Virus record (IMG/VR): IMGVR_UViG_2663763456_000003 | Source: a virus | Lineage: Duplodnaviria; Heunggongvirae; Uroviricota; Caudoviricetes | Reading direction: 5' to 3' (one strand) | DNA: 4,651 bases | Program-made: the position numbers and the translations under genes | Notes under the pieces: generated by a model | Databases searched by the model: none | What the model was told of the DNA's origin: nothing | What the model saw: the letters and a program-made list of their open reading frames with translations, nothing else | Shown here: piece after piece, positions 1-4,651 of the stretch | How positions within the stretch are numbered: position 1 is the first letter of the stretch | Layout of the letters: the number at the start of each line of letters is the position of its first letter

Positions 1-413
1 GCCTGTCATGGGCTGTTAATCATTACCGTGATAACGCCATTACCTACAAAGAGCAGCGCGACAAAAACGCAAGAGAACTGAAGCTGGCGAACGCAACCAT
101 TACTGACATGCAGCAGAGACAGCGTGATGTTAATGCACTCGATGCTAAATACACGAAGGAGTTAGCTGATGCGAAAGCTGAAAATGAAACTCTGCGCGCT
201 GATGTTGCCGCTGGTCGTCGTCGGTTGCACATCAAAGCAGTCTGTCAGTCAGTGCGTGAAGCCACCACCGCCTCCGGCGTGGATAATGCAACCAGCCCCC
301 GACTGGCAGACACCGCTGAACGGGATTATTTCACCCTCAGAGAGCGGCTGATGACGATGCAGATGCAACTGGAAGGGGCACAGGAGTATATCCGCACTCA
401 GTGCATTAAGTAG
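1..413 (+). CDS. Rz: Rz-like i-spanin (lysis, inner-membrane spanin subunit); 5' end lies upstream of the window
   Basis: Open frame from position 3 to TAG at 411-413. Translation ([29 protein letters not shown]...[70 protein letters not shown]...) is near-identical, from memory, to lambda Rz. No N-terminal Met in the window, so the gene is truncated by the window edge. Confidence 0.9.
169..351 (+). CDS. Rz1: Rz1-like o-spanin outer-membrane lipoprotein, nested in the +1 frame inside Rz
   Basis: ATG at 169 preceded by AAGGAG (155-160); 60 aa [60 protein letters not shown]. It has a signal peptide with lipobox (VVGC) and a proline-rich mature part, is the same length as lambda Rz1 and nearly the same sequence from memory, and is fully embedded in Rz as in lambda. 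Confidence 0.85.
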
Positions 414-455: not shown

Positions 456-806
456 ATGCCATCACTAATCCCACGTGCCTGCCGTAAGCGTGGATGTGCA
501 GGTACAACCACAGACAGTTCGGGTTACTGCGATAAACATCGCGGTGAAGGCTGGGTGCAGCACCAGCGCGGACTGAGCCGCCACCAGCGTGGCTATGGCT
601 CAAAATGGACGGTGATTCGTGCCCGTATTCTGAAGCGCGATAAAGGTCTGTGTCAGTTGTGTCTGCGTGTCGGTGTGGTGAGCGAGGCGAAAACCGTCGA
701 CCACATCATCCCGAAAGCGCATGGCGGAACAGACGCAGACAGCAACCTGCAGAGTCTGTGCTGGCCCTGCCATAAAGCGAAAACAGCGCGCGAACGAATC
801 CGGTGA
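456..806 (+). CDS. HNH endonuclease, phage packaging-associated (HK97 gp74-like)
   Basis: ATG 456 with GAGGT 9 nt upstream; 116 aa. N-terminal Cys cluster (C9, C14, C25), CxxC (CQLC) and CWPCH, with an HNH core (DHIIPKAHGG...N...CWPCHKAK) at about nt 699-773. It sits immediately upstream of the terminase small subunit, the conserved position of the HNH protein in HK97-like phages. Confidence 0.87.
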   Translation: MPSLIPRACRKRGCAGTTTDSSGYCDKHRGEGWVQHQRGLSRHQRGYGSKWTVIRARILKRDKGLCQLCLRVGVVSEAKTVDHIIPKAHGGTDADSNLQSLCWPCHKAKTARERIR

Positions 807-828
807 TAATTATTCTCACTTGTAGGGA

Positions 829-888
829 GGGGCGGGGCAAATCCCTGTGACCTGACGTCTTCCGGACTGCCCGCCCCATCGTTTTTTT
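829..888. other. GC-rich interrupted inverted repeat plus T7 tract in the HNH-terS intergenic region; candidate cos / terminase recognition region
   Basis: GGGGCGGGGCA (829-839) and TGCCCGCCCC (868-877) form a 10-bp stem with one bulged G, separated by 28 nt that include GTGACCTGACGTC (847-859, contains palindromic GACGTC), followed by ATCG and T7 (882-888). The location between HNH and terS is where cos sits in HK97-type genomes. The exact cleavage site cannot be determined from sequence alone. Confidence 0.4.
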
Positions 889-927
889 ATACCCGCGAAA
901 AATGAAATTTAACCAGGAGTGCCGCAT

Positions 928-1422
928 ATGGCTGGAACGGCGGGGCGTTCCGGGCGTCGCCCCAAGCCAACGGCGCGCAAGGCGCTGGCCGGAAACCCCG
1001 GCAAGCGAGCCCTGAACAAAGATGAACCTGTTTTTACGCCCATCAAAGGTGTTGAGCCACCAGAGTGGTTCGCTGAAGAAGATCTCCCTCTCGCCACGAT
1101 CATGTGGCAACTGACAACCAAAGAACTCTGCGGTCAGGGCCTGCTGTGCGTGACTGACCTGGCGGTACTTGAGCGGTGGTGCGTGGCCTATGAGTTCTGG
1201 CGACGTGCCGTGAAAAATATTGCCATACAGGGCAACACCATCACCGGTGCAATGGGCGGCAGGGTCAAAAATCCGGAGCTGACCGCCAAAAAAGAACAGG
1301 AGTCCGAGATGAGCAGCACGGGGGCAATGCTCGGACTCGACCCCAGCAGCCGCCAGCGTCTGATTGGCCTGGCGGGGCAGAAGAAAGCCACTAACCCGTT
1401 TCTGAAAATTATCGAATCATGA
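928..1422 (+). CDS. Terminase small subunit (P27 family-like, HK97 gp1-like)
   Basis: ATG 928 preceded by AGGAG (915-919, 8-nt spacer); the ORF track's GTG 919 start is 3 codons upstream in the same frame. About 164 aa, basic N-terminus ([29 protein letters not shown]...). Size, composition and position directly upstream of and overlapping the large terminase gene support the call. Stop TGA 1420-1422 overlaps the terL ATG (ATGA). Confidence 0.85.
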
Positions 1423-3152
1423 GCCGGAAATCTTACCCCAACGTAAATGCTGCAAATCAGTATGCCCGGGATGTCGTGCGCGGAAAGATTGTTGCCTGCC
1501 AGTTTGTGATTCAGGCCTGCCAGCGCCATCTTGATGACCTGATGGCGGAAAAAAGTAAGTCGTTTCGTTACCGCTTCGACAAGGACCTGGCTGAACGGGC
1601 CGCGAAATTTATTCAGCTGTTGCCGCACACCAAGGGGGAGTGGGCATTCAAACGGATGCCCATCACGCTGGAGCCGTGGCAGCTATTTGTGATCTGCTGT
1701 GCGTTTGGCTGGGTCAATAAAGGCACCCGGTTGCGCCGCTTCCGGGAGGTGTACACCGAAATCCCCCGTAAGAACGGCAAATCAGCAATCTCTGCCGGTG
1801 TTGCCCTGTATTGTTTTGCCTGTGATAACGAGTTTGGCGCGGAAGTGTATTCCGGTGCCACGACAGAGAAACAGGCGTGGGAAGTCTTTCGCCCGGCGCG
1901 ACTGATGTGTAAACGCACACCCATGCTGACGGAAGCGTTCGGGATTGAGGTTAACGCCTCAAACATGAACCGTCCGGAGGATGGCGCGCGGTTTGAACCG
2001 CTGATCGGCAACCCAGGTGATGGTTCATCACCCCACTGTGCCGTGGTTGATGAATATCACGAGCATGCCACCGATGCGCTTTATACCACAATGCTTACCG
2101 GGATGGGGGCGCGACGTCAGCCACTGATGTGGGCCATCACCACCGCCGGGTACAACATTGAGGGGCCGTGCTACGACAAGCGGCGGGAAGTCATCGAGAT
2201 GCTCAACGGCTCGGTGCCTAACGATGAACTGTTCGGGATCATCTATACCGTTGATGAAGGTGACGACTGGACCGGCCCGCAGGTGCTGGAAAAAGCCAAT
2301 CCAAATATTGGCGTGTCGGTTTATCGCGAATTTTTGTTAAGTCAGCAGCAGCGTGCGAAAAATAACGCCCGTCTGGCAAACGTCTTTAAAACAAAACACC
2401 TCAATATCTGGGTGTCGGCGCGTTCGGCGTATTTCAACTTGGTGAGCTGGCAGAGCTGCGAGGATAAATCACTGACCCTTGAGCAGTTCGAGGGGCAGCC
2501 GTGCATTCTGGCCTTTGACCTGGCGCGTAAGCTGGATATGAACAGCATGGCGCGACTTTATACCCGCGAGATTGACGGTAAAACGCATTACTACAGTGTG
2601 GCCCCGCGTTTCTGGGTACCGTATGACACGGTGTACAGCGTCGAGAAAAATGAAGATCGACGGACAGCCGAACGCTTTCAGAAATGGGTGGAAATGGGCG
2701 TTCTGACCGTTACCGATGGTGCGGAGGTGGATTATCGCTACATCCTCGAGGAGGCCAAAGCGGCGAACAAAATCAGCCCGGTCAGTGAGTCACCCATCGA
2801 CCCCTTCGGGGCGACCGGGTTGTCACATGACCTTGCTGATGAAGACCTGAATCCCGTCACTATCGTCCAGAACTTCACCAATATGTCCGATCCGATGAAA
2901 GAGCTGGAAGCAGCGATTGAATCGGGACGTTTTCATCATGACGGCAATCCCATCATGACCTGGTGTATCGGCAACGTGGTCGGCAAAAACATGCCGGGTA
3001 ACGATGATGTGGTGAAACCCGTCAAAGAGCAGGCGGAAAACAAAATCGATGGTGCAGTTGCGCTGATTATGGCGGTTGGCAGAGCCATGCTGTACGAGAA
3101 AGAAGACACGCTGTCTGACCACATTGAGTCCTACGGGATCCGCTCGCTTTAA
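1419..3152 (+). CDS. Terminase large subunit (ATPase + nuclease)
   Basis: 577-aa ORF translationally coupled to terS. Walker A-like P-loop IPRKNGKS (nt 1761-1784), Walker B-like hydrophobic stretch ending in DE (CAVVDE, nt 2037-2054), and a C-terminal region with acidic residues consistent with an RNase H-like nuclease ([11 protein letters not shown]...). Enterobacterial codon usage throughout. Confidence 0.93.
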
Positions 3153-3163
3153 CTGAGGTAATT

Positions 3164-3346
3164 ATGATCATGCTGATTCTCGCGCCTCTGGTGGGCGTGC
3201 TGGGTGCGCTTTTGCTGGCGTATGGTGCCTGGCTGATTTATCCCCCGGCGGGTTTTGTTGTTGCCGGGGCGCTGTGCCTGTTCTGGTCGTGGCTGGTGGC
3301 GCGATATCTCGACCGTACACGGCAGTCTGTCGGCGGAGGTAAATAG
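3164..3346 (+). CDS. Small hypothetical membrane protein (60 aa, two predicted TM helices), between terL and portal
   Basis: ATG 3164 with GAGGT (3155-3159) upstream; stop TAG 3344-3346. [60 protein letters not shown] has two hydrophobic segments separated by YPPAG and a basic C-tail. Codons are strongly enterobacterial (CTG-rich), unlike the overlapping alternative frame. No homolog recognised from memory. Confidence 0.5.
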
Positions 3347-4502
3347 TGTTCTTTTCGGGATTATTTCAACGAAAAAGCGATGTGCCGGTGACCACGCCAG
3401 CAGAACTGCTGATGCTATCGGGCTGTCATACGACACCTATACCGGAAAGCGGATCAGTAGCCAGCGGGCCATGCGCCTGACGGCGGTCTATTCTTGCGTC
3501 AGGGTGCTGGCAGAGTCTGTTGGTATGCTGCCCTGCAGTCTCTACAAAATCAGCGGTACCCTGAAAACACGGGCGGTGGATGAACGACTGCATAAGTTGG
3601 TTTCGGCAAAACCTAATGGCTACATGACACCGCAGGAATTCTGGGAGCTGGTTATTGTCTGCCTGTGTCTACGGGGGAATTTTTACGCCTACAAGGTAAA
3701 GGCACTGGGAGAAGTGGTGGAGCTTCTTCCGATAGATCCGGGCTGTGTGGAACCGAAGCTGAACAGCCAGTGGCAGCCGGTTTATCAGGTGACGTTTCCG
3801 GATGGTTCCGTGGATGTGTTGACCCAGAATGAAATCTGGCATGTGCGCACCCTGACGCTGGATGGACTTGTCGGGCTGAATCCCATTGCGTATGCGCGTG
3901 AGGCCATTTCACTGGCAGCGGCAACCGAGGAGCACGGTGCCAGGTTGTTTAGTAATGGTGCGGTGACATCCGGTGTGTTGCGTACGGAACAAAAGCTCAC
4001 GCCGGATGCTTACGAGCGTCTGAAGAAAGATTTTGAGGAGTGTCACACGGGGCTTGGCAATGCTCACCGCCCGATGATTCTGGAAATGGGGCTGGACTGG
4101 AAGTCGATGGCGCTGAACGCCGAGGACAGTCAGTTCCTGGAAACCCGCAAGTTTCAGCTGGAAGAAATCTGTCGTCTGTTCCGGGTGCCGTTGCACATGG
4201 TGCAGAACACCGATCGCGCCACCTTCAACAATATCGAAGAGCTGGGGCTGGGATTTATCAACTATTCACTGGTGCCGTATCTGACCCGCATCGAACAGCG
4301 GATCAACACCGGACTGGTACGAAAAAGTAAGCAGGGCGTTTATTACGCCAAATTTAACGCCGGGGCGTTACTGCGCGGGGATATGAAGTCCCGTTTTGAA
4401 GCCTACGCCACCGGGATCAACTGGGGAATTTACTCTTCCAATGACTGCCGCGACCTGGAAGATATGAATCCGCGTCCCGGTGGTGTAATGCCGATCAGTT
4501 AA
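3346..4502 (+). CDS. Portal protein, HK97 family; 5' end apparently frameshifted (start GTG 3346 in one frame, body from about 3423 to 4502 in another; uninterrupted from ATG 3471)
   Basis: The body (3471-4502; ...QRAMRLTAVYSCVRVLAESVGMLPCSLYK...) has the conserved N-proximal motif and length typical of HK97-family portals and sits directly after terL. GTG 3346 follows a GGAGG SD (3335-3339) by 6 nt and overlaps the upstream stop (TAGTG); it encodes a portal-like N-terminus MFFSGLFQRKSDVPVTTPAELLMLSG but runs into TGA at 3478-3480. The ORF-track start (TTG 3255) has no SD and lies in the poorly coding frame over 3255-3345. The N-terminal boundary is therefore uncertain. Confidence 0.8.
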
Positions 4503-4534
4503 GGATCAGTTGACCGATCCAGTGGCTGTGTAAG

Positions 4535-4569
4535 AATCCGGAAACGCTCACTTGTTTCCGGATTTTTTT
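4535..4569 (+). terminator. Rho-independent terminator-like hairpin downstream of portal
   Basis: Perfect 11-bp stem AATCCGGAAAC (4535-4545) / GTTTCCGGATT (4554-4564) with an 8-nt loop, followed by a T run (4563-4569, 7 T). The T run is on the + strand, matching the direction of the late operon. Confidence 0.6.
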
Positions 4570-4651
4570 ATGCACATTGGACAGGCTCTTGATCTGGTAT
4601 CCCGTTACGATTCTCTGCGTAACCCACTGACTTCTCTGGGGGATTACCTCG
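4570..4651 (+). CDS. Start of an unidentified ORF running off the window end (by synteny possibly the next head gene, e.g. prohead protease)
   Basis: ATG 4570 opens a frame through the window end (MHIGQALDLVSRYDSLRNPLTSLGDYL...) with enterobacterial codons (CTG, CGT, AAC, TAC). There is no clear SD (the start abuts the terminator T run) and only 27 codons are visible, so the call is weak. Confidence 0.3.
   Translation, partial: MHIGQALDLVSRYDSLRNPLTSLGDYL

Follow-up and report, generated by a model that had tools for sequence, protein, structure and literature searches.

Organization of the Locus

The DNA analyzed here (4,651 nt; "the window" throughout) was identified by its ORF map and by similarity searches as late-region DNA from a phiP27/e14-like prophage. 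Its exact sequence is present in at least 13 of 20 chromosomal loci fetched from separate assemblies, among them CP000038.1, the Shigella sonnei Ss046 chromosome (PMC5447701). We are therefore highly confident that the window belongs to a degraded prophage of this type, with an HK97-type head module, residing in the S. sonnei chromosome. In the fetched loci, the upstream edge of the remnant is an IS3-family element adjoining a DnaB-like gene.

The features of the window are collected in Table 1. The two lysis ORFs at its left end probably represent a classic nested Rz/Rz1 spanin pair. The Rz1-like ORF has a lipoprotein-like start signal and is proline-rich, and one assembly's gene call for it carries PF06085 (Rz1). 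The HNH, small terminase, large terminase, and lysis genes of the remnant are all still intact ORFs, and decay has thus not been uniform; HNH, TerS, and TerL (456–3152) stand full-length beside a dead portal gene. An index of the assembly collection lists the large terminase in 4305 blocks. In a few draft assemblies (loci L006, L009, and L012) TerS or TerL was called in pieces, which may reflect either further decay or assembly errors. Between TerL and the portal gene lies a small ORF whose counterparts in the same slot of homologous prophages carry the annotation "protein YmfR" or "membrane protein"; a Pfam search of its 60-aa product gave no match.

Table 1. Features of the window (positions counted from its first base)
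Feature	Position	Strand	Remarks
Rz gene, end	108–413		5' end outside window; ORF map
Rz1-like lipoprotein ORF, 60 aa	169–351		nested in Rz in another frame; ORF map
HNH endonuclease	456–806		ORF map
Small terminase, TerS	919–1422		ORF map
Large terminase, TerL, 577 aa	1419–3152		ORF map
ymfR-like membrane-protein ORF, 60 aa	3164–3346	+	ORF map; annotation of homologues
GGAGG, Shine-Dalgarno-like sequence	3335–3339	+	6 nt upstream of GTG 3346; same in all 7 aligned homologues
Portal codons 1–21 (MFFSGLFQRKSDVPVTTPAEL)	3346–3408	+	original start frame; tblastn
1-nt deletion site	3408/3409	+	one G of CTG-GCN (codons 21–22) lost, leaving CTGCT; frameshift
Out-of-frame tail of 44-aa ORF (LMLSGCHTTPIPESGSVASGPCA, then TGA)	3409–3480	+	by-product of the deletion
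Portal body	3409–4485	+	last two bases of codon 22 to codon 380, plus first base of codon 381
343-aa "portal" ORF	3471–4502	+	internal ATG to IS4-encoded stop
IS4 left end (TAATGCCGATCAG...)	4486–4651	+	transposase ATG 4571; portal cut after codon 380 of 413

The Portal Reading Frame Is Split by the Apparent Loss of One Base

The portal start codon, GTG 3346–3348, overlaps the TAG stop (3344–3346) of the ymfR-like ORF in a TAGTG arrangement and is preceded by a GGAGG sequence that probably serves as its ribosome-binding site. This start opens an ORF of only 44 aa (3346–3480), which closes at TGA 3478–3480. A long frame, −1 relative to the start frame, extends uninterrupted from TTG 3255 to position 4502, has an internal ATG at 3471, and encodes the portal body. 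The original prediction had described the same arrangement, and all of its coordinates for these elements match the sequence. It had also proposed that, in a frameshift-aware comparison, a homologous portal would align first to the 3346 frame and then to the body frame. This is what was observed when the 413-aa phiP27 portal was used as a tblastn query against the window: its residues 1–21 matched frame +1 at 3346–3408 (19/21 identical, E 4e-8), and residues 5–380 were aligned to frame +3 at 3357–4484, with real similarity beginning only at residue 23. Because the match divides between frames +1 and +3, the split of the portal can be taken as real and far beyond chance. The residues LMLSG, previously counted as part of a portal-like N terminus, lie past the 3408/3409 junction and are already out of frame. 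A Pfam search with the 44-aa product returned no match, and an exact look-up of this product found no gene on record, a result that is uninformative, short ORFs being seldom called.

Two DNA alignments located the lesion. The first contained the window, phiP27, and E. coli A36; the second, the window and six intact or partial homologues, namely phiP27, E. coli C311, K-12 e14, a divergent E. coli prophage with an ATG start and 77% DNA identity, SfII, and ST64B. Both introduced a single gap in the window, where CTG-CT GAT GC faces CTG GC(G/A) GA(T/G) GC in the homologues. When one G is put back, the translation reads ...TTPAELADAIGLSYDTYTGKR..., which is identical across the junction to that of C311, K-12 e14, SfII, and ST64B; the repair restores ELADAIGLSYD and gives 380 codons without a stop. 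The predicted 1-nt deletion is thus borne out by both alignments and by tblastn, but its site is not 3421–3425, as first proposed, but 3408/3409, about 15 nt upstream. Likewise, the two frames do join as expected, but the result is not a continuous portal of about 386 aa: the repaired product is still incomplete, since IS4 sequence from 4486 onward takes the place of the final 33 codons out of 413.

An IS4 Element Truncates the Portal Gene

This truncation is a second lesion, which had escaped notice in the earlier reading of the sequence. Homology to P27-like prophages ends at position 4485, and megablast matches for the remainder of the window (4486–4651), to IS4-family transposase elements, came from 2634 E. 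coli records. Alignment with the IS4 copies located in mlc, torT, and ptrR placed the boundary with single-base precision: the element starts with the same first base (TAATGCC...) at these three unrelated insertion sites, which identifies it as IS4. Consistently, the genes that follow have PF13006 (Nterm_IS4) and PF01609 matches. Portal codons 381–413 are replaced by five IS-encoded codons (VMPIS) followed by a stop. The left flanks of IS4 are alike at four unrelated sites (portal, mlc, torT, and ptrR), reading roughly ..AAnCCGCGnCC..CGGTGGTG/TAATGCC, which fits a strong target-site preference of IS4.

All 20 loci (20/20) were without DNA similar to the 3' end of the phiP27 portal gene or to the phiP27 protease, capsid, and adaptor genes over the next 10 kb, a stretch that has no prophage tail genes either. 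What lies beyond IS4, itself often split by an IS3-family element, is bamE-recN-nadK-grpE or, in a subset of strains, raiA-pheA-tyrA-aroF. The downstream flank differs between two groups of assemblies (L008, L011, and L016–L018 versus L003–L007 and L013–L015): one group has the interrupted IS4 and then bamE-recN-nadK-grpE, and the other an intact 442-aa IS4 transposase and then raiA-pheL-pheA-tyrA-aroF. Since the genes beyond IS4 vary in this way, IS-mediated inversion or recombination between strains is suggested.

Despite the two lesions, the family of the gene is readily recognized. The repaired 380-aa product matched PF04860 (Phage_portal) with 359.2 bits (cutoff, 39.1) over profile positions 2–321 of 321, and the TIGR01537 (portal_HK97) equivalog with 263.7 bits (cutoff, 112.05) over positions 3–343 of 343. 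It also matched portals of solved structure, namely the HK97 portal (8cez; E 4.6e-51, residues 27–380), the gp1 portal 9lbn (2.9e-50), and the portal of the Rhodobacter gene transfer agent (6te8; 2.2e-19). The upstream gene order (TerL at 1419–3152, the ymfR-like gene, portal) also fits a portal. The protease and capsid genes expected to follow are missing, with IS4 at 4486 and neither gene within 10 kb, which is consistent with a remnant rather than with a different family. An intact full-length portal ORF is not present, given the deletion at 3408/3409 and IS4 at 4486. By descent, then, the gene is an HK97-family portal, but not an intact member of that family.

Annotated Portal ORFs and the Possibility of a Truncated Product

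Gene callers deal with this locus in two ways. Many assemblies list a 343-aa "portal" beginning at the internal ATG 3471, which is an annotation artifact of both lesions. In CP000038.1, the call is a 414-aa "portal" (L020 11840–13084, equivalent to window 3258–4502) whose start is a TTG farther upstream in the body frame and which shares roughly 90 nt with the ymfR-like ORF. The frameshift is concealed by either call, and the two deserve to be flagged as one pseudogene, though the practical value of doing so is limited to annotation hygiene.

Could the remnant nonetheless make a portal fragment lacking both its N and C termini, possibly co-opted for some purpose? ATG 3471 lies 7 nt upstream of TGA 3478–3480, so that stop and start fall within 10 nt of one another (ATGCGCCTGA), and spacing of this kind is compatible with termination-reinitiation. 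Low-level reinitiation at ATG 3471, yielding a protein without both ends, is therefore conceivable. The 343-aa ORF is, moreover, identical across S. sonnei assemblies. However, S. sonnei is a very recent clone, and identity among its isolates is hence uninformative about selection. Late phage operons in remnants are normally silent, and no sequence feature points to a new function. We consider production of such a fragment very improbable. Less probable still is a more specific version, in which the truncated portal (ATG 3471 to the IS4-encoded stop) would be kept as a domesticated, dominant-negative defense fragment directed against P27/SfII-like phages; if this were true, the defective portal subunit would hinder head assembly of such superinfecting phages.

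Homologous Portals Are Encoded by a Single ORF

The 221 nt spanning positions 3300–3520 were compared with 5,426 complete E. coli genomes by sensitive blastn, and 1359 records covered at least 80% of this query. Among full-length rows sampled evenly down the ranking, 222 nt of subject paired with the 221-nt query in 29 out of 29. A longer, 601-nt query paired with 602 nt in all 40 of the E. coli rows listed and in all 16 full-length phage rows. Indeed, all homologues examined, whether from E. coli, Shigella phages, or Salmonella phages, had the extra base and one continuous ORF; the deletion appears to be private to the S. sonnei lineage. We also noted a 1764-nt record under the name of an Enterococcus faecium phage (OR844959.1, "Enterococcus phage Efm 3-10"). 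It matches window 3150–3475 at 96.6% identity, carries the extra base (327 nt versus 326 nt of query), and has a TerL-ymfR-portal junction of enterobacterial type; contamination or mislabeling of the record seems likely.

Annotation gives each homologous portal as a single ORF whose GTG or ATG start overlaps the ymfR stop (phiP27, 413 aa), and the N termini of these portals, from the annotated starts, read MFFSGLFQRKSD.PVTTPAEL. It had been reasoned that intact homologues starting at the counterpart of ATG 3471, or within the TTG 3255 frame, would speak against a split gene; the annotated GTG/ATG starts instead correspond to position 3346. The divergent homologue (77% DNA identity) retains MFFQGLFQRKNNTPVTTP despite many DNA changes, and the first 21 codons are hence judged to be genuinely coding in the 3346 frame.

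These comparisons bear directly on the idea that the arrangement is native, with the 44-aa ORF being either a small gene of its own or open by chance, and the portal beginning at ATG 3471. The 343-aa calls from ATG 3471 in many assemblies would agree with it, as would the late onset of the portal profile matches in the repaired protein (residue 47 for Pfam and residue 39 for TIGRFAM). But the homologues are continuous from the matching GTG/ATG, with the first 21 residues conserved even at 77% DNA identity; the 23 residues that end the 44-aa product are without counterpart in any homologue, and no Shine-Dalgarno sequence is found upstream of ATG 3471, leaving the portal body with no start that has one. 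A native two-gene structure is accordingly scarcely credible, and a portal gene split by deletion accounts for the sequence.

No Recoding Signal Is Apparent in the Overlap

In principle, programmed −1 ribosomal frameshifting or transcriptional slippage could restore a full-length portal, in which TTPAELADAIGLSY would be the peptide spanning the frame junction. The overlap of the two frames covers 3346–3480, such that a −1 shift anywhere in this interval would give an open product, and an A5 run (3372–3376) lies within it. All frames of 3346–3480 were scanned and no XXXYYYZ heptamer was present, as had been noted before; the longest runs in the interval are T4 and that same A5, both judged too short for efficient slippage. 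With neither a slippery heptamer nor a long homopolymer, programmed frameshifting is unsupported. A shift at the A5 run would, besides, swap out 11 conserved residues. The two-frame arrangement is not shared by homologues, all those examined having a single continuous frame; as they need no shift, there is no conserved recoding signal. The portal is, in addition, cut by IS4 and is without its partner head genes at the locus. Unconventional decoding, one of three causes initially offered for the split, is in our estimate exceedingly unlikely.

The Deletion Is Found in All S. sonnei Loci Sampled

A 50-mer and a 220-mer across the deletion were identical in 20 of 20 loci from separate NCBI assemblies, which include CP000038.1 and one 10-kb short-read draft contig; from these data the deletion appears to be fixed in the S. 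sonnei assemblies sampled. Within the assembly collection, 1695 indexed blocks contain the 343-aa product (3471–4502) encoded downstream of the deletion. A one-genome-per-species collection gave no exact match to a 40-mer spanning the site; S. sonnei is evidently not represented there, and exact-protein look-ups decided the matter. A sequencing or assembly error in a genome that truly reads CTGGCT, with an intact 5' end, can be set aside as practically excluded: single-base indels are the commonest kind of assembly error and the 40-mer is missing from that collection, but the 20 independent assemblies agree, the affected site is a GG dinucleotide rather than an error-prone long homopolymer, and the downstream product recurs in the 1695 indexed blocks.

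The Portal as a Doubly Disrupted Pseudogene

With error and unconventional decoding set aside, prophage decay is the cause of the split that the evidence favors. We conclude that the portal is, almost certainly, a pseudogene disrupted twice, by the 1-nt deletion and by IS4, in a decaying prophage, and not the site of an unusual decoding signal; evidence contradicting this reading was not found. The ancestral portal would have been one ORF of about 413 codons starting at GTG 3346, its start probably coupled translationally to the ymfR-like gene through the TAGTG overlap. The S. sonnei lineage lost one G of CTG-GCN at codons 21–22. Ribosomes initiating at GTG 3346 are now predicted to read 21 correct codons and 23 nonsense codons before stopping at TGA 3478–3480. 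IS4 inserted independently after codon 380, and the portal 3' end, together with the prohead protease, capsid, connector, and tail genes, is missing from the locus. Prophage heads could therefore not be built from it. As no head or tail genes are present at the locus, neutral decay is the simplest reading of the deletion, and we infer that no functional portal is made.

The locus adds one more clear case of decay by point indel plus IS insertion in Shigella sonnei. A frameshift-plus-IS pseudogene is an ordinary kind of finding. Expansion of IS elements and accumulation of pseudogenes are already familiar features of Shigella genomes (e.g., PMC8072062).

Comparison with Known Systems

The closest known relative is the portal of the Stx2e phage phiP27 (NP_543090, 413 aa), near-identical versions of which occur in P27-like E. 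coli prophages, SfII, SfIV, SfI, and ST64B. The window shares with phiP27 the gene order HNH, TerS, TerL, ymfR-like gene, portal, and a GTG start placed over the stop of the preceding gene; the two are 95.5% identical in DNA around the junction, and residues 23–380 of the repaired product are almost identical. Unlike phiP27, the window is missing one G of codon 22, codons 381–413, and the protease and capsid genes.

The HK97 gp3 portal (8cez, 8fql) belongs to the same family but is a distant homologue; unlike the gene in the window, it is intact and functional and has a longer N terminus. The −1 shift in the G/GT tail chaperone of lambda bears a superficial likeness to our locus in that two frames overlap within a late phage gene. 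Programmed shifts such as that of G/GT use a slippery heptamer and are conserved across relatives, whereas the portal in the window has no heptamer and the relatives examined are all single-frame.

A further parallel is e14, a defective prophage of E. coli K-12, which carries a homologous portal pseudogene in the same context (a terminase remnant and ymfR). We take this pseudogene, downstream of ymfR, to be beeE. In e14 (L024 717–3238) the terminase is without its N terminus, ymfR is intact, and the portal, on the other side of ymfR, abuts a baseplate J remnant. The 5' end of the e14 portal, with about 90% DNA identity to the window, is in frame, and a deletion about 408 nt into the gene fuses it to the baseplate remnant, whereas the portal described here combines a 5' frameshift with a 3' IS4 insertion. 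Since the e14 homologue has also become a pseudogene, through a different lesion, decay of this module is commonplace.
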